63,681 nucleotides of DNA, filler included, from an uncultured virus (IMG/VR IMGVR_UViG_2061766007_001711) (5 parts of one record of this genome joined end to end with filler, not necessarily neighbours in it), one strand, 5' to 3'. Positions 1,037 through 54,525 are shown, numbered from the whole stretch's first letter. A program made the numbers and translations. The notes: generated by a model not told the origin, from the sequence alone.

Positions 1037-1324
1037 GTGAACTGAAAGCCACAACAGTCTATGATGCATACTGGACAGCAAATTCTGTAGGCGAAGGAAC
1101 AGGCATCCAAGTCTACCTCAAATCCGAAGCCGACAAGGTGATTGCCCATAACAAGCGCAAGCGGTGCTTGGCGATGTACCGCTATTGCGCAATTAAAGCA
1201 TTATATGAATTGGACTTAAAAGGAAACGATGTAGAATGGAAATGGTATAGCAAATGGATGCACTATTGGTTCAACCTTGCCAAAGAACCTACGTGGGCAA
1301 AGTTCCTGCAACTGATTCACAAGG
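1033..1324 (+). CDS. mosaic hypothetical protein, cassette family A (3' end at gap)
   Basis: MSELK...YLKSEADKVIA...KRCLAM...EPTWAKFLQLIHK blocks shared with six other copies. Confidence 0.75.
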
Positions 1325-1358
1325 NNNNNNNNNNCAAGTTCAAGGAGGCGAAGTAGGT

Positions 1359-1517
1359 ATGAATTATATAGTACATATTGAGGCAGATATAGTCGTTGAT
1401 GCTAGTGATGAGCTTGACGCAGAACAGCGAGCGCTAGACCGCTTTGTTAGTGACGAATATAAAGGGGCTATGAAGGCAACTCCACTAGACGAATACGGAC
1501 ATGAGGAGGCGAAGTGA
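1359..1517 (+). CDS. hypothetical protein
   Basis: AAGGAGG RBS; its 3' end is repeated at 1-50 with a different downstream gene. Confidence 0.6.
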   Translation: MNYIVHIEADIVVDASDELDAEQRALDRFVSDEYKGAMKATPLDEYGHEEAK

Positions 1518-1768
1518 TGAAAAAGATTAGAAAACTTATCTACAACTATGTATTTAAACGAGTTGTTGCATGGCAAGAAGGGCGTATTGAAGACCAAGAG
1601 CTGACGGATGCTCTCTACACATACTGCGACACGAATCTCAAGGAAGCGAAGATTTGTGGAGAGCATCCACGTTTCGGATGTGCTACGGAAATGAAAATCA
1701 ATGACGAAATGGACGATGTTTCGGATTGGGCCAAAGACGCAGCAAAGAAACTGACGGAGGATAAATGA
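1514..1768 (+). CDS. hypothetical protein (MKKIRKLIYNY...)
   Basis: Coupled start/stop; partial alleles at 41182-41280 and 38314-38432(-). Confidence 0.65.
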   Translation: MMKKIRKLIYNYVFKRVVAWQEGRIEDQELTDALYTYCDTNLKEAKICGEHPRFGCATEMKINDEMDDVSDWAKDAAKKLTEDK

Positions 1769-1835
1769 AAACGCTCACGCTTTCACTCAAGAAAAAGTGG
1801 TTCGACATGATTAAGGCTGGAATCAAGAAGGAGGA
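1765..1835 (+). CDS. ASCH-domain protein, N-terminal fragment
   Basis: MKTLTLSLKKKWFDMIKAGIKKE, a typical ASCH N-terminus; the rest lies in the N gap, with a C-terminal YFVITWEA at about 2533-2566. Confidence 0.7.
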
Positions 1836-2565
1836 NNNNNNNNNNNNNNNNNNNNNNNNNNNNNNNNNNNNNNNNNNNNNNNNNNNNNNNNNNNNNNNNN
1901 NNNNNNNNNNNNNNNNNNNNNNNNNNNNNNNNNNNNNNNNNNNNNNNNNNNNNNNNNNNNNNNNNNNNNNNNNNNNNNNNNNNNNNNNNNNNNNNNNNNN
2001 NNNNNNNNNNNNNNNNNNNNNNNNNNNNNNNNNNNNNNNNNNNNNNNNNNNNNNNNNNNNNNNNNNNNNNNNNNNNNNNNNNNNNNNNNNNNNNNNNNNN
2101 NNNNNNNNNNNNNNNNNNNNNNNNNNNNNNNNNNNNNNNNNNNNNNNNNNNNNNNNNNNNNNNNNNNNNNNNNNNNNNNNNNNNNNNNNNNNNNNNNNNN
2201 NNNNNNNNNNNNNNNNNNNNNNNNNNNNNNNNNNNNNNNNNNNNNNNNNNNNNNNNNNNNNNNNNNNNNNNNNNNNNNNNNNNNNNNNNNNNNNNNNNNN
2301 NNNNNNNNNNNNNNNNNNNNNNNNNNNNNNNNNNNNNNNNNNNNNNNNNNNNNNNNNNNNNNNNNNNNNNNNNNNNNNNNNNNNNNNNNNNNNNNNNNNN
2401 NNNNNNNNNNNNNNNNNNNNNNNNNNNNNNNNNNNNNNNNNNNNNNNNNNNNNNNNNNNNNNNNNNNNNNNNNNNNNNNNNNNNNNNNNNNNNNNNNNNN
2501 NNNNNNNNNNNNNNNNNNNNNNNNNNNNNNNNAAAAGAGTATTTCGTGATTACGTGGGAGGCGTG

Positions 2566-2946
2566 ATGAACTGGGAATCTCTAATCTCATCACGAATGCG
2601 TCCGTGCTCGAAGATGGCGGCGCAAGACTACGAGCACTCCGAAGGACGGAAGCGACAGCACAAGGCGTGGGCGAAGTCTGCGGAGGGACAATTAAGTTAC
2701 AGGCGCCGACAGGAAAAATGGAGAGCTTCGGAAAAAGGACGGGAGACGTGCAGAAGAAAGTCCTTGAGGTTCTACGATCGGCACAAGAACGACCCCGAAT
2801 TCAAGGCGAAACGGCACGATTACGAGAGGAAGTTCCGCCTGCGCCATAGACCGGGAAAGCTCCGGCAGATTGATTTCACCATAACGCTGCTCGGTGGCGG
2901 AACTTTCACCGCCCACGTGCTCACAACCCGCCGCACTGCGGCATAA
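2566..2946 (+). CDS. basic Arg/Lys-rich hypothetical protein
   Basis: GGGAGG RBS; repeated SE(K)GR motifs resembling 3503-3814. Confidence 0.65.
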   Translation: MNWESLISSRMRPCSKMAAQDYEHSEGRKRQHKAWAKSAEGQLSYRRRQEKWRASEKGRETCRRKSLRFYDRHKNDPEFKAKRHDYERKFRLRHRPGKLRQIDFTITLLGGGTFTAHVLTTRRTAA

Positions 2947-2970
2947 ACCCTAAACCAAAAGGAGACCATC

Positions 2971-3030
2971 ATGGCATGCGGTAGCAAGAAGCCGTCCGGC
3001 AAGAAGAAGCCGACAACCAAGAAGAAGTAG
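2971..3030 (+). CDS. 19-aa Lys-rich micropeptide MACGSKKPSGKKKPTTKKK
   Basis: AAGGAG RBS 6 nt upstream, AAG-rich codons, followed by a hairpin (3039-3066). Confidence 0.55.
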   Translation: MACGSKKPSGKKKPTTKKK

Positions 3031-3097
3031 TCCTTCTCCCGGCATCCCCCGAGAGGGAGGTGTCGGAAAAAGGTCTAAATAACAAGGAGACGAAATC

Positions 3098-3301
3098 ATG
3101 CTCGAAAAGGAAGCCCGGATAAACCGGGATTACGCGGACTCCCGACACAGCTCGATAAGGGAGCGTAATGAAGTGACTCCCGACACGCCATCCACCGCGA
3201 CGTGCTGCTCCTGCGGCGTAAGGGGCGAAGCCGTTCTCATGGGCCACGTGGGAGACGGCCTCTACAAGTGCGCCAAGTGCCTGGGGGTTGCCAATGCCTA
3301 G
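3098..3301 (+). CDS. small zinc-finger-like protein
   Basis: AAGGAG RBS; CCSC and CAKC motifs. Confidence 0.6.
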   Translation: MLEKEARINRDYADSRHSSIRERNEVTPDTPSTATCCSCGVRGEAVLMGHVGDGLYKCAKCLGVANA

Positions 3302-3506
3302 GAAGAATATCGACAAGCACGAGTTCAAGATTTGCGAAGCCGTGGCCCTCGGGCTTACCCACTACTACATGGGGCCGCGAGACAAGCGCGAGGTCACCGC
3401 GTCGGAACGCGCCGAGGCCCTCGCCATCCTCCCCACCCTGGAGCCGGGATGGATGCAGGAGGCGCACGACTGGGATGCCTGCGACAACTACGGGAGGACC
3501 GCGTGA
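3294..3506 (+). CDS. hypothetical protein
   Basis: Overlaps both neighbours; GC3-rich codons. Confidence 0.6.
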   Translation: MPRKNIDKHEFKICEAVALGLTHYYMGPRDKREVTASERAEALAILPTLEPGWMQEAHDWDACDNYGRTA

Positions 3507-3814: not shown

Positions 3815-4902
3815 AGAAAAATGTCCTCATACTGCACCCGGCGGACAAGAGCGCCTGCGCCTTCTACCGCTGCCACGCCGTCGCCATGCTCCTCAACTCC
3901 TCGGCAGGAGGCGACGTCGAGGTCATAGTCTCACGCGCCGAAATCACCGACGAGTACGTCCTCAAGTACACCGCCGCCGTGGTCTTCTTCCGCGTGACAA
4001 CGGAGCAGCAGGCCACGATGGTGATGCACTACAAGCGCAACAGGCGCCGGTTCGGTTTCCGCATATTCTGCGACTACGACGACCTGGTCTTCGACGTTGG
4101 CCGCTTCGACCGCCTCCCAGCATGGAACCCGAACCCGGACGAGGACCTCAGGAAGAATGCCGAGGTGATGAAGGGAGCGCTCTCCGACATCGACGGGATA
4201 ACTGTAACGACGGAATGGCTCAAGGGCTGCATGGAGACGCGCTTCGGTTGGCCCCACGTCCGCATCCTCCCGAACGCCGTCCCGCGCTATTGCTTCGGGA
4301 GGAATCCGAGGAAGGGCGTTGACGAGGACATCATGCGCCCGCGCGTGCTCTACGCGGGCTCCACGTGCCACTTCTCGGAAGGGAACCCGGGGGACTTCGC
4401 TGGGCCGTGGATCGGGTGGCTCCGTAGCGCCGTGGAAAGGGACGAGATGGAGCTGCACCTTTTCCAGATGCCGGACTTCCTCGCAGGACTCGAGGACAAG
4501 GTGACCGTACACGGGCAGACATCGGCGGTGGAGTTCCCGTCGGTGGTCGCATCGATAGAGCCCCACTTCTACCTTGCCCCTCTTGCGGACAACTTCTTCA
4601 ACAGGGCGAAGTCGAACTTGAAGCTGCTGGAGGCTACGGCGGTAGGCGCCGTGCTAATCGCCAGCTCGTTCATATGGAGCCCGTACGAGGAGGCGTTCCC
4701 GGTCGCGAAGGTGGCGAAGGGAGACTCCGAGACCATGCTTGCCTCGCGGTTCAGGAGCCTATGCGACGTCAGGTGCTACAACTACGCACTAGGATGGCAG
4801 CGTAGCGTAATGGACCGCGGTGGCCTGTGGATGGACTCGAGGTCCTACCTGGAACGGTGGCTCCGGTCCTGGTTCGGAGAGACGCTCGTCGTGAACGGAT
4901 AG
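3805..4902 (+). CDS. glycosyltransferase (GT-B / family 4-like)
   Basis: FYR, DYDDL, ITVTTEWL, LPNAVP and APLADNFFNRAKSNLKLLEATAVG motifs typical of phage GT-B enzymes. Confidence 0.85.
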   Translation: MLIKKNVLILHPADKSACAFYRCHAVAMLLNSSAGGDVEVIVSRAEITDEYVLKYTAAVVFFRVTTEQQATMVMHYKRNRRRFGFRIFCDYDDLVFDVGRFDRLPAWNPNPDEDLRKNAEVMKGALSDIDGITVTTEWLKGCMETRFGWPHVRILPNAVPRYCFGRNPRKGVDEDIMRPRVLYAGSTCHFSEGNPGDFAGPWIGWLRSAVERDEMELHLFQMPDFLAGLEDKVTVHGQTSAVEFPSVVASIEPHFYLAPLADNFFNRAKSNLKLLEATAVGAVLIASSFIWSPYEEAFPVAKVAKGDSETMLASRFRSLCDVRCYNYALGWQRSVMDRGGLWMDSRSYLERWLRSWFGETLVVNG

Positions 4903-4904
4903 AG

Positions 4905-4934
4905 AAAGCCCCGCCCGTGAAGGCGGGGTTTTTT
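4905..4934. terminator. bidirectional intrinsic terminator
   Basis: AAAGCCCCGCC-CGTGAA-GGCGGGGTTTTTT between convergent genes. Confidence 0.85.
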
Positions 4935-4951
4935 GCGTCAGGAGGTATCCC

Positions 4952-5314
4952 TTAATTTTCCACGATGACTAGCTTCTTGACATTGCGGCAGAGCATCGTG
5001 ACCATGGTCTCTGCTGGTTGCGATTCGACGAGCTTGTCGCCATTACAGCCCATGCCGACGAGGACGCACCCTATCGAATCCTTGTAGGAGTTTCCGACGT
5101 GGATGCGGATGCCGCGCTTCGCGGGTACGGCGGCATTGTAGAGCAGCGGGAGCTCGCGCTTGAACTTCGTGGACTTGCTGTTCTCGATTGAATAGAGCCC
5201 CGCTGGTATGGCCTTGGAGGCGTTTTCGAGGGTGAAGCATATAAAAGTACTGCCGAGAAAAAGACGGCCTTGTACAGCCGTTTCTGTGAACTTGTCGCGT
5301 ATGAGCGTGAACAT
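4952..5314 (-). CDS. DUF5675-like protein, putative endolysin
   Basis: GRLF..CFTLE..AIPAGLY..GIRIHVGN..DSIGCVLVG pattern (His/Cys dyad); last gene of the late operon. Confidence 0.75.
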   Translation of the reverse strand: MFTLIRDKFTETAVQGRLFLGSTFICFTLENASKAIPAGLYSIENSKSTKFKRELPLLYNAAVPAKRGIRIHVGNSYKDSIGCVLVGMGCNGDKLVESQPAETMVTMLCRNVKKLVIVEN

Positions 5315-5509
5315 CTAGAACCTCACCACCATCGAACACTTGTCGGCCACCTTGTAGTCGTCCGAGCCCCAATGATTAGAACCGCCCGCGAACCACTCCA
5401 CCGCCTTGTCTGCGCACCCCGCCTTGAACCTGCCGATGCCGGACTCGCGGAGCAGCCCCCGGAAGATGTCGTCGCACTCCTCGCGGCGCAGGATGGAGTA
5501 TCCCTTCGT
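5315..5509 (-). CDS. DUF1353-like protein, C-terminal fragment (allele)
   Basis: KGYSILRREECDDIFRGLLRESG aligns with 59332-59793. Confidence 0.65.
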   Translation of the reverse strand, partial: TKGYSILRREECDDIFRGLLRESGIGRFKAGCADKAVEWFAGGSNHWGSDDYKVADKCSMVVRF

Positions 5510-5553
5510 NNNNNNNNNNNNNNNNNNNNNNNNNNNNNNNNNNNNNNNNNNNN

Positions 5554-5565
5554 TTAATTAATTAA
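5554..5565. other. artificial contig-joining linker TTAATTAATTAA (also 7703-7714, 32177-32188, 54338-54349)
   Basis: Identical 12-mer with stops in all six frames, embedded in N runs four times. Confidence 0.97.
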
Positions 5566-5609
5566 NNNNNNNNNNNNNNNNNNNNNNNNNNNNNNNNNNN
5601 NNNNNNNNN

Positions 5610-6411: not shown

Positions 6412-6669
6412 GAGGAAAAAGAACGCATTCTGCAAGGTGTTGTTCGGGTCGAATGACTTCACCCTGAGCAGTTTCTGTGCCAGCCAAGGGATGCTCCCGC
6501 AGTTGCTGATGTAGCCTTCCCCGACCTGCCAAAGGTACTTGCCCCTTGACGTATACAACAGCATCCCGAAATCCTTCTCGAATGCATATACGATGTCGCC
6601 CTTCAGCTTGCCTTCTGCGACCTGCATAGGCTTGAGTATCTTTGCCGAGTTGAGTACGACTGCACCCAT
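6412..6669 (-). CDS. DUF1353-like protein, N-terminal fragment
   Basis: Near-identical to the N-terminus of 59332-59793. Confidence 0.7.
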
Positions 6670-6762
6670 TCCCTACCTCCTTTTCCAGTCGTCGATGTCG
6701 AACAGCTTGCCGCCCACGATGGCGACGGCGAGCAGTATTCCGAAGGCTATGACGAGCCCCGT

Positions 6763-7643: not shown

Positions 7644-7758
7644 AAACTATCCCTCTGCNNNNNNNNNNNNNNNNNNNNNNNNNNNNNNNNNNNNNNNNNN
7701 NNTTAATTAATTAANNNNNNNNNNNNNNNNNNNNNNNNNNNNNNNNNNNNNNNNNNNN

Positions 7759-32120: not shown

Positions 32121-32232
32121 CGAAGACAACTGNNNNNNNNNNNNNNNNNNNNNNNNNNNNNNNNNNNNNNNNNNNNTTAATTAATTAANNNNNNNNNNNN
32201 NNNNNNNNNNNNNNNNNNNNNNNNNNNNNNNN

Positions 32233-32473: not shown

Positions 32474-32611
32474 NNNNNNNNNNCTGGAAGGCAATATGTG
32501 CTCGAATACGAAGAAGTTGGCGGTGATATACCCGGCCGTGNNNNNNNNNNTGGGCGCGGAATATAGGCCCCTCGACGAGGGCAAGCAAATAGACATTTTC
32601 GAGGGGGTTGC

Positions 32612-34348: not shown

Positions 34349-34462
34349 ATGGCGCAGCTTGACTTATTCCCAGACTTGAAAATTAAACGGACGAGAGCCT
34401 CCAAAGAATACTGGGCTTTCACGGACAAGTTCAAGACCAAGCTCACGACAGACGACTGCTAC
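34349..34462 (+). CDS. N6-adenine methyltransferase (NPPF type), N-terminal fragment
   Basis: KFKTKLTTDDCY continues as TPEPVY at 36555. Confidence 0.65.
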
Positions 34463-34609
34463 NNNNNNNNNNCTCCGAAATCGACAAGCACGCCATCAAG
34501 CAGACGATGCTGAACTTTCCCGACACCGTCCAGCTTGGCAGCGTGACCGAGGTTGACGCACGTAAACTCGGACACATTGACCTGCTTATCGGTGGNNNNN
34601 NNNNNAAAA

Positions 34610-35048
34610 ATGATAATGAACCTCGGACTACCATATAAAGGGAGTAAGAACACCATCGCGAACGACATCGTGAAGGCGCTCCCGCGCGGGAAGAAGCTCC
34701 TCGATGCGTGTTGCGGTGGCGGCGCGATTTTGATGGCGGCGGCCATGAGCGGACGCTGGGAGAAGGTCGTGGGGAACGACCTCAACGCGGCGACGATTGC
34801 CTTGCTTGACTCGGTGCTCATACACAAGGGTCAAATCGAATACGAACACCCGCCCGTCTGCACGCGCGATGACTTTTTTCACAGCCTGCAACGCATCGAG
34901 AACGGCGACTTTACCATCCAGGACTGCGTGAACAAGTACTGCGCGAGCTTTGGGAATGACGGAAAGACGTATTTATACGGGGCCGATTTGGAAGCGTGCA
35001 AGACGACCGCAGAGGAAATGCTCGCAGGCGCCACTCTTGAAAACAGAC
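34610..35048 (+). CDS. D12-class adenine methyltransferase, N-terminal fragment
   Basis: GLPYKGSKN...LLDACCGGGAI...VGNDLN...SFGNDG; a middle fragment with LER repeats is at 36004-36259. Confidence 0.8.
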
Positions 35049-35058
35049 NNNNNNNNNN

Positions 35059-35993
35059 CACGAACGAGGAAATCTACACGCTTGACCGCTACCTTGAACT
35101 GAAAAAGCAGGGCTTCGAGTTCGACGGCGAATCGTTCCTCTTCTGGGAATATATGCGCATCTTGGGCGAGGTGCGCGAAACGAACCCCGACGTGTTCTTT
35201 TTCCTCGAGAACGTGGAGATGGGCGAGAAATGGGAATCCGTGCTGACGAAGGCAATCGGCATCCCAGGCGTGCATATCAACTCTGCACTCGTGAGCGCGC
35301 AGAACCGCAGGAGAATCTATTGGACGAACATCAAGACGAAAACCGAGGGTCTTTTCGGGTGGACGGTGCCGGACATCCCGCAGCCGGAGGACAGGGGCAT
35401 AATGCTCGCCGACGTGCTTGAAGACGATGTGGACGGCAAGTATTACCTCAAGGACGAGGTGGTGGATAAACTGCTTGCGAACGGGGTCAAGGGTGCCGAA
35501 AAAGATGTCGTGTTATCCTAGTGGTAGGTCGGGGGTAATGATTACCAACCCAAACAAAACTATGTCACTTATGGCGAATTATTGGAAAGGCTATGGCAAC
35601 GAATTTGCAAGACCCTATGTGCTCGAATACGAAGAAATTACTTGTGTACCCGATATGGCATCCAGGAAAGGATGATTTCGGGCTTATTGCAAAGGAAGAT
35701 GTTTTTTTATGCAGCACTTACTACAAAGGAATGGAGATGCACGGGTATAGGCCGTACATAATGGAATATGAGGAACTTTGAGCAGATAGGCTTTACAGCA
35801 ACGCACGGATGCGAGAACGCTAACAACGGGCCGTTCTTCTTCTGGAAATCCGGCGGCTGCGACAACGCTTTAACGATAAACTCCTGGTGGCATCAAAACT
35901 TTATCATGGAATACGAAATTATACCCATTCTCCGCATCAAGGAGGCGACAAAGGCCGGATTCGTGGAAATCCACCCCGGCGAGTGCTTCGACG
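35059..35993 (+). CDS. C5 cytosine methyltransferase core plus frame-offset variable-region units
   Basis: FFLENV (motif VI), AQNRRRIYW (motif VIII), then repeated units ending YVLEYEE/YIMEYEE/FIMEYE in successive frames, then RIKEATKAGF. Confidence 0.75.
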
Positions 35994-36211
35994 NNNNNNN
36001 NNNATCGTTCGGGAATAATGGGCAGACCTATTTATGGAATCCCGAGATAGAAAAAATTAAGGTAAACGTGGAGCAGATGCTCGTCGCGACACGATTGCCC
36101 CAGCGCAGGCGAGCATTTAGAAAATTTATAGCCTACCTCGAAAAGCAAGCGGAGTTCGACATCGCGAAGCTGGAAAACATACAGCAACTGCAAAATCTTG
36201 AAAGATTGCAA

Positions 36212-36259
36212 CGGCTTGAACGGCTTGAACGGCTTGAACGGCTTGAACGGCTTGAACGG
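36212..36259 (+). repeat. 9-bp tandem repeat (CGGCTTGAA)n encoding LER
   Basis: At least five perfect units running into a gap. Confidence 0.9.
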
Positions 36260-43968: not shown

Positions 43969-44015
43969 CAGTTCGCCTCCAGGTAGTATTCCGCGTAGTT
44001 CTTGCNNNNNNNNNN

Positions 44016-44642
44016 CACGTCCGCGAGCATTATGCCCCTGTCCTCCGGCTGCGGGATGTCCGGCACCGTCCACCCAAAAAGACCCTCGGTTTTCGTCTTG
44101 ATGTTCGTCCAATAGATGCGCCTGCGGTTCTGCGCGGACACGAGGGCCGAGTTGATATGCACGCCTGGGATGCCGATGGCATTCGTCAGCACGGACTCCC
44201 ACTTTTCTCCCATCTCCACGTTTTCGAGGAAAAAGAACACATTGGGGTTGGTCTCGCGCACCTCGCCGAGAATGCGCATATATTCCCAGAAGAGGAAGGA
44301 CTCGCCGTCGAACTCGAAGCCTTGCCTTTTCAGTTCGAGGTAACGGTCGAGCGTGTATATTTCCTCGTTCGTGGTGGTGTTCATGCCGTTTCTGCGACCG
44401 GCAAAACTGAAATTTGTGCACGGCGAGCCCCCGATGAGCAGGTCGATGTGTCCGAGTTTACGCGCGTCCACCTCGGTCACGCTGCCGAGCTGGACGGTGT
44501 CGGGAAAGTTCAGCATCGTCTGCTTAATGGCGTGCTTGTCGATTTCGGATGCGTAGTATTTGTCCACCTTGATTCCGAGTTCCTTGAGCGCGATCTGTCC
44601 GCAGCTCATGCCGTCGAAAAGTGAAAGAACGGTAATTCCCAT
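44016..44642 (-). CDS. C5 cytosine methyltransferase, N-terminal core
   Basis: VLSLFDGMSCG (I), SEID (II), LLIGGSPCTNFS (IV), FFLENV (VI), QNRRRIY (VIII). Confidence 0.92.
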
Positions 44643-54162: not shown

Positions 54163-54525
54163 TTTAAATTTACCTCATGTACTATTCCGGCATCTTCATT
54201 GTTATGCCGATGTTGATCGTACTCTGCCCAACATCTGTTATTTGTCCACTTTCTGAGCATATCGCGGAACTCATTATAGCACTCCGGGCATAGNNNNNNN
54301 NNNNNNNNNNNNNNNNNNNNNNNNNNNNNNNNNNNNNTTAATTAATTAANNNNNNNNNNNNNNNNNNNNNNNNNNNNNNNNNNNNNNNNNNNNTATTCCG
54401 CCAAAGACAAATCAACCGCTGGCATTGTTCGACCTGAAGCAATTCGACGTGCCGGTTGACGTGAAGTTGATAATTGGTTACATCGCGAAAGCNNNNNNNN
54501 NNAGTACCTCGCGGAGGAGGACTAG

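Follow-up and report, generated by a model that had tools for sequence, protein, structure and literature searches.

A phage cytosine methyltransferase locus that reads as a chain of overlapping genes for detached target-recognition modules

The C5 cytosine methyltransferase locus described here, from a rumen phage, appears to be a chain of separate, overlapping genes: a catalytic head, several target-recognition domain (TRD) mini-genes and a tail, with the modules acting in trans. We put the probability of this reading at about 0.6. Its parts differ in strength. Judged from sequence, a gene layout of autonomous TRD mini-genes is very probable, and function of the mini-gene products in trans is somewhat better than an even bet.

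In this layout the head gene encodes motifs I-VIII and stops just past ..LLANGVKGA. Small genes of ~45-70 codons come next, each with one target-recognition module. The N-terminal strand of the module reads [KR][KR]-h-h-C/Y-x-P, its middle part resembles K..C-L/I..YYKGYG and its C-terminal strand reads Y-[IV]-[LM]-E-Y-E-E. Motifs IX-X, together with the final module, make up the tail gene. The start of every downstream gene is an ATG formed by the Tyr codon of the module before it and the G behind that codon (TAT G), and the preceding gene ends a few codons later. The mini-genes would be translated by coupling or re-initiation. Free modules of ~55 aa could then dock on the head-plus-tail scaffold, letting one catalytic core methylate several targets and shield the phage from several restriction systems.

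The locus in the window

The window, the whole stretch of 63,681 nt that was analysed, is made of 75 pieces with 74 N runs between them, most of these 10 N long. Four identical 12-nt islands, TTAATTAATTAA, each with 44 N on either side (5510-5609, 7659-7758, 32133-32232 and 54294-54393), look like contig-concatenation linkers. Because the window consists of concatenated scaffolds, gene order around the methyltransferase locus is unreliable. The array itself sits in a single uninterrupted piece of 935 nt (35059-35993). The C5 methyltransferase gene is incomplete in the window, with its motif IV region in a gap and motif X on another piece, and fragments from two or more methyltransferase genes lie intermingled around the array. 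The features are the following.

32484..32540, + strand: 57-nt piece with a junction of a different array variant (..EYEE / NTKKLAVIYPAV), 81% to unit 2 of relative L004
33253..33351, + strand: 3′ end of the tail ORF (..AYRMLGNGWTVEVIKHFFSFLPFEREA) with motif X (GNGWTVEV), a separate piece not contiguous with the array
34474..34595, + strand: catalytic head fragment (SEIDKHAIKQ...DLLIGG), motif II to just before motif IV, N runs on both sides
34610-35047: D12-class adenine methyltransferase fragment (PF02086, E 2.8e-7), between two C5 enzyme fragments
35060..35521, + strand: 3′ part of the head ORF, motifs V-VIII, ending DKLLANGVKGAEKDVVLS, stop TAG 35519-35521
35493..35675, + strand: TRD mini-gene u1, frame +1, unit HMM E 1.2e-15, stop TGA 35673-35675
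35617..35781, + strand: TRD mini-gene u2, frame +2, unit HMM E 3.2e-14, stop TGA 35779-35781
35625..35636, + strand: u1/u2 junction GAATACGAAGAA, EYEE in the u1 frame and (N)TKK in the u2 frame
35764..35775, + strand: u2/tail junction GAATATGAGGAA, EYEE in the u2 frame and (N)MRN in the tail frame, then CTT TGA
35768..35993, + strand: 5′ part of the tail ORF, start ATG 35768 inside the EYEE of u2, cut by an N run at 35994
43977..44642, - strand: second copy of the catalytic head ORF, residues 1-221, 92% by tblastn to the head ORF of relative L086

The second head copy suggests that the scaffold mixes two related phage variants. The window also holds two differing D12-class adenine methyltransferase-like fragments, at 34610-35047 (SFGNDGKTYLY..) and 36004-36259 (SFGNNGQTYLW..), the latter ending in a tandem CTTGAACGG repeat (LERLERLER..) that enters an N gap.

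The stretch is present in animal-gut metagenome runs, mostly bovine, of 15 studies; in RNA runs, 5-7% of sampled window words were present. Logan contigs of four studies (X1 record 4, X2 record 13, X3 record 22, X4 records 28/29) cover 35377-35993 with 0 gaps. The X3 contig, 599 nt long, runs across all three junctions, and the X4 contigs have 0 differences to the window. No indel was found across 35377-35993 among the contigs of these four studies, which bears out the judgement of the first-pass annotation that random sequencing error is unlikely.

The head is recognizable on both sides of the gap. The upstream fragment has a weak PF00145 match (E 0.02) and aligns by tblastn with the L086 head ORF at 65% over 34423-34611. 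Its N gap begins after ..DLLIGG (34595), where relatives continue with the motif IV Pro-Cys as GGSPC(T/Q). The frame from 35060 reads ..LFWEY..FLENVEMG..SAQNRRRIYWTN..DKLLANGVKGAEKDVVLS; 35060-35518 matches PF00145 at E 2.2e-7 and 31 bits (cut-off 22), and this part is 90% identical to the L086 head ORF. Motif VI (ENV, in FLENVEMG) and motif VIII (QxRxR, as SAQNRRR) are both in the core frame, and that frame stops after motif VIII at TAG 35519-35521, just as first described.

The tail begins in the array and ends elsewhere. In its 5′ part a resident TRD unit, u3 (MRNFEQIGF...FIMEYE), is in frame with IIPILRIKEATKAGFVEIHPGECFD, and the window tail shares 93-96% identity with residues 1-75 of the tail ORFs of L086 and L004. 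Those two ORFs are full-length and have motifs IX-X; the L086 tail aligns to M.HhaI residues 271-314 (motifs IX-X) at E 7.7e-4. The separate piece 33253..33351 matches residues 142-177 of relatives' tail ORFs at 85-94% by tblastn.

Three related units of 45-50 codons come after the head stop, in frames +1, +2 and +0. They are u1 (KKMSCYP...PYVLEYEE), u2 (KKLLVYP...PYIMEYEE) and u3 (MRNFEQIGF...NFIMEYE), the last returning to the core frame and continuing into IIPILRIKEATKAGF. The first-pass annotation had reported exactly such a series of related units in successive +1 frames ending in the core frame, with lengths of 133, 139 and 145 nt. We find 133 nt from KK (35499) to KK (35632), and unit ends 139 and 145 nt apart. 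Its junction GAATA(C/T)GA(A/G)GAA is present twice, at 35625-35636 and 35764-35775, and the further junction it placed in the piece 32484-32540 is there too. In L103 and an X1 contig, the unit of that piece comes after u1. The window has two detached modules, u1 and u2, and a third, u3, that is joined to the tail.

Candidate starts exist for both detached units. For u1 they are GTG 35493 (giving MPKKMSCYP) and ATG 35505, which lies after the KK motif, with an overlap of 17-29 nt with the head ORF; for u2 they are ATG 35617, inside the TAT GTG of PYV in u1, and ATG 35593, with 59 nt of overlap with u1. Near-identical copies of u1 occur in L082 and L103. For u2 there is a DNA-identical copy in L085, and a public protein of 63 aa (P0032) is 91% identical. 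The G+C content is 41% in the detached units (35499-35770), 56% in the head (35060-35498) and 53% on average in the window.

Starts, stops and frame steps at the junctions

At the canonical junction, GAATATGAAGAA, which reads EYEE / nMKK, the ATG of the next unit lies inside the final Tyr codon of the previous one. Placing the new ATG in TAT G gives a +1 frame, and hence units that measure 3n+1 from junction to junction. To survey such sites we took, from 31 clade-1 sequences, every non-redundant [E/D]-Y-E site preceded by at least 25 open codons, and dropped one of the sequences (L097) for having no core match, which left 80 sites. A +1 ORF follows at 51 sites and a +2 ORF at 3, the frame simply continues at 12, and 14 show neither. 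The step is +1 in 51 of the 54 non-continuing junctions with an open next frame.

At 45/51 junctions the +1 frame has an ATG between codons -6 and +1 (33 in the Tyr codon, 12 in a TAT GTG four codons upstream), a conservation that is partly entangled with the conserved Y-E residues. In the +2 control frame the count is 0/51; in the same frame it is 17/51, this being the Met of I-M-E-Y-E. Among the six other +1 junctions, two have a double EYEEYEE with the ATG in the second copy, three have an ATG 8-11 codons upstream, and the sixth, at L092 2531, is not part of an array. TAT encodes the junction Tyr in 33/51 cases, against 2/12 at sites of in-frame continuation (Fisher p 0.0035). For reference, TAT makes up 49/131 Tyr codons in 16 head ORFs, and at array-terminal EYE-IIPILRIK sites the Tyr codon is TAC in 6/6. 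The old frame stops 1-23 codons beyond EYE.

Starts are also found where the step is not +1, as in GCA TAA TGA at the junction of head and first unit in L003 and AAATGAAG at L003 3587. ORFs in L101 overlap by -1 and -4 nt, and ATGA or TAATG overlaps occur at some -1 junctions. Two junctions of the window lack the canonical start: u1 would begin at its GTG or at the ATG beyond the KK motif, and at u2 the junction Tyr is TAC, with the ATG four codons upstream. The u2/tail junction reads GAA CTT TGA G, which we take to resemble the RF2 +1 frameshift site. Shine-Dalgarno sites (AAGGAG, CAGGAG, AAGGAGG) precede the ordinary genes of the window, whereas mini-gene starts mostly have none, so translation of the mini-genes is probably coupled to the upstream ORF.

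Relatives, exchange and selection

Searches for relatives of the core gave 170 loci in IMG/VR (80 kept) and 265 in metagenomes (80 kept). A search of viral contigs with u1 or u2 as query found no relative; relatives of the units came from the metagenome scan. By script call, 63/80 kept viral loci are a single in-frame ORF from core to motif X, 11/80 have an early stop and 6/80 received no call. Motif X is in another frame in L002, L004 and L007, and lies beyond the fetched flank in L003, L005, L006 and L010-L014. The split forms fall in the closest clade, L002-L007 (at least 80% core identity), and in a second clade, L010-L014 (~62%), with L015 added by HMM. All metagenome relatives viewed with at least 80% core identity are split, and the split layout appears in 30/30 close relatives whose bounds could be set. 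The check on homologues that the first-pass annotation proposed thus came out in its favour, as relatives share the junctions.

Some relatives lie close to the window. L082, with 98% core protein identity, carries the very three units of the window. A G-to-T change at its u2/tail junction (1640-1655) turns the u2 stop TGA into TTA, and a TAG stands four codons after the tail ATG; the change may leave L082 with a defective tail, or may itself be an error. In other relatives the catalytic Pro-Cys motif of the head ORF is interrupted by an insert resembling an intein (..VHN|CTNFSFAG), seen in L002 and L003 at ~2700-3000 and in L088/L089, with an open frame of 1289-3232 for this head ORF in L088.

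Two phage contigs carry longer arrays.

L106, a 216-kb phage contig: head 4731-5441; modules m1 from 5444, m2 from 5629, m3 from 5839, m4 from 6005, m5 from 6190; tail 6415-6705
L105, a 33-kb phage contig, 5488-8541: 17 mini-ORFs of 54-72 aa, 16 of them with ATG, and a 98-aa tail without TRD

In L106 there are spacers of 2 nt before m1, 15 nt before m3, 2 nt before m5 and 21 nt before the tail, and the tail (96 aa) consists of motifs IX-X alone, without a TRD. The L105 chain was called by a heuristic chain walker. In neither contig is a TRD covalently attached to the tail, and L101 also has a module-free tail.

When public gene calls were searched with a profile built from 34 units, 57 of 1.84 billion cluster representatives matched at E <=0.001. 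Of the matches, 52 measure 33-94 aa and the remaining 5 exceed that length. The 24 sequences inspected among the 57 start with M[KR]K and end with EYEE plus a short, often acidic tail. Together with the conserved starts, the early stops of the old frame and the non-overlapping genes of L106, these public proteins of 33-94 aa argue for the separate TRD mini-subunits that the first-pass annotation had listed among its mechanisms.

Fusions also occur in nature. One longer protein, P0020 (323 aa), is a tail subunit with, by eye, about five modules in frame, and in L085 the junction at 3480-3500, GAAATGAAG compared with GAATATGAAG, is one base shorter, fusing u2, in frame, to the module after it and to the tail. 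From these two sequences, a fused product also works or is tolerated. The one annotated relative inspected, a single-ORF homologue in Bacteroides phage SJC10, is labelled "hypothetical protein".

Searches on the modules themselves gave no family assignment, in Pfam with three unit translations or in PHROGs with 12 mini-proteins, and a PDB sequence search with one mini-protein gave 0 matches. An AF2 model of u2 from 57 aligned sequences shows a small fold of three strands at moderate confidence (pLDDT 78, pTM 0.52). Compared with the PDB, it gave no meaningful match (Foldseek best E 1.6; VIA-align wide best Z 2.7).

Comparison of strains indicates that whole units move. The window and L103 are nearly identical through u1 and lose similarity right after GAATA(C/T)GAAGAA; against L085, the first unit differs, u2 is identical and divergence sets in at ATGGAA. 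The breakpoint of strain mosaics falls at the u1/u2 junction (35625..35636). In the runs, contigs branch at 35500, 35616-35636, 35766/35767 and 35906, with the branching at 35766/35767 seen in X1, X2 and X4, and one X4 contig connects 35765 directly to 35920. Depth in X1 is ~7 over u1-u2 and 60-74 over head and tail. From these sequences, the units behave as cassettes swapped between strains at conserved junctions. Exchange of units at the junctions leads to fragmented assembly, and strain-level cassette variation of this kind breaks metagenome assemblies, the window included.

The units also bear the mark of coding selection. In seven orthologous unit pairs (Nei-Gojobori), pN is 0.009-0.34 and pS 0.37-0.91 in the own frame, and pN >= pS in both other frames; the pairs are hand-picked, the units short, pS saturated and the protein-guided alignment slightly favourable to the chosen frame. 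They come from outside window u1 and u2, whose copies in L082, L103 and L085 are near-identical. In the core frame, variable sites fall on third codon positions in 26/29 cases in the head and 9/11 in u3, counted over 40 inspected rows with 68 further rows outside the count. Decay had been named by the first-pass annotation as the outcome that would speak against it; with pN far below pS, the units do not look like decaying sequence.

Long G/C runs set the arrays of relatives apart from their surroundings. Counting runs of 7 nt or longer, there are in clade 1 45 within 38.8 kb of array and 3 in 129 kb outside; in clade 2 there are 53 in 34.2 kb and 2 in 42.8 kb. Such runs are ~50x denser in arrays than outside. 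The window has none of at least 7 nt. The runs are poly-C or poly-G of 7-11 nt inside units, at PPP or GG (L004 at 3485, 3630 and 3760; seven runs in L095; L010-L014 and others). Tract length varies between near-identical contigs of relatives: 16 tract sites with identical 14-nt flanks in at least two contigs have lengths of 7-10, with 3/16 coming from the L088/L089 duplicate. The in-frame length is usually 8, and by an open-frame heuristic 38 tracts are in frame and 75 out. This pattern suggests per-module phase variation in relatives, with homopolymer assembly error as the remaining alternative. A tentative extension of the mini-gene reading follows, which we hold a little below even odds: free-standing recognition peptides of ~55 residues might plug into a two-piece scaffold, and units swapped at junctions and switched by tracts might together form a combinatorial, stochastic anti-restriction repertoire.

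Alternatives and known systems

Exchange of whole units could also be read in another way. The array could be a silent cassette store, in which only the module fused to the tail is used and the upstream units are an unexpressed reservoir moved in by recombination. Strains do differ in whole units, their breakpoints lying at the junctions, the array has less G+C than the head (41% vs 56%), and u2 stands mid-array in the window and L082 yet is fused to the tail in L085 and in the X4 contig that joins 35765 to 35920. Nevertheless we consider this unlikely. A store would leave nothing expressed in L106, L105 and L101, whose tails have no module, and starts are kept mid-array, with a TAT bias that is absent where no new ORF begins. 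An unsystematic look beside the array noticed no recombinase or inverted repeat. Of the recombinational cassettes offered by the first-pass annotation, what finds support is evolution between strains with breakpoints at junctions, and the programmed switch finds none.

Programmed +1 frameshifting at each junction, giving one multispecific head-modules-tail polypeptide, was another mechanism on that list and is one we think very improbable. It could account for the conserved junction sequence, for the predominance of +1 steps (51/54) and for an old frame that stops soon, and one window junction does have the CTT TGA of the RF2 motif. That motif is found at only 1/3 window junctions, however, and there is no common slippery motif, as the sequences after EYE vary. 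Neither -1 steps nor spacers between genes could be bridged in this way, an ATG would be needless and yet is found at 45/51 junctions, and 3-17 successive shifts would presumably yield very little full-length product. Least credible of all is a decaying pseudogene or assembly artefact. The scaffold is badly fragmented and concatenated, and units in many relatives are broken at homopolymer tracts, but assemblies of four studies agree base for base at the junctions, pN is far below pS in the own frame, and the layout is common to dozens of contigs from different samples. Of the three mechanisms first offered, coupled re-initiation of separate mini-subunits, together with cassette exchange between strains, is the part best supported, and we return to separate mini-genes as the preferred reading.

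We found no description of detached TRD mini-genes in the literature, judged by titles and abstracts. Loci of this kind end up annotated as pseudogenes or as strings of hypothetical proteins. If the preferred reading is true, it would explain how up to 17 specificities fit in about 3 kb of small phages, and the locus would be a natural plug-and-play system to retarget cytosine methylation.

Several known systems share part of this organization. Phasevarions involve bacterial Type I and III enzymes that are switched as a whole by a single tract. Phase-variable methyltransferases of this homopolymer kind are treated in PMC12707154. The likeness lies in the G/C runs of 7-11 nt in relatives' units, whose length differs between near-identical contigs; unlike in phasevarions, each module would own its switch, and the window has no such tract.

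M.EcoHK31I offers a parallel in the encoding of a small C5 methyltransferase part in an overlapping frame. According to PMC2836561 and PMC3404938, it has a small overlapping-frame peptide that is required for activity, a beta chain that supplies motif IX and is wholly nested in the alpha gene. That enzyme has one extra chain, carrying motif IX, whereas the present locus has an array of TRD genes.

M.AquI is built of two chains split in the variable region, chain 1 with motifs I-VIII and chain 2 with the rest and IX-X (PMC3404938). Fragments of monomeric C5 methyltransferases complement each other, and M.AquI and M.EcoHK31I are natural two-chain enzymes (PMC3404938 and PMC2836561). The head stop at 35519 and the tail ORF start at ATG 35768 match the M.AquI arrangement, as do the full ORFs of L086 and L004. 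In contrast to its two chains, 1-17 extra module-only genes lie between the halves (2 in the window and 4-17 in relatives, L086 having four), and some tails are module-free.

The modules themselves have a counterpart in the multispecific C5 methyltransferases of Bacillus phages, M.SPRI, M.Phi3TI, M.Rho11sI and M.H2I, which carry their modules in one polypeptide. Like the SPR type, the present locus has several short, exchangeable modules in tandem between motifs VIII and IX (3 in the window, up to 17 in relatives) and one catalytic core presumably serving many specificities; the likeness is one of arrangement as generally described, with sequence similarity outside the comparison. Unlike the SPR type, where all modules form one polypeptide, most modules here are separate ORFs of 45-70 codons in shifted frames, each with its own start and stop. 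If our reading is true, this would be the first C5 methyltransferase with its specificity modules as separate subunits, following a logic analogous to that of HsdS in Type I systems.
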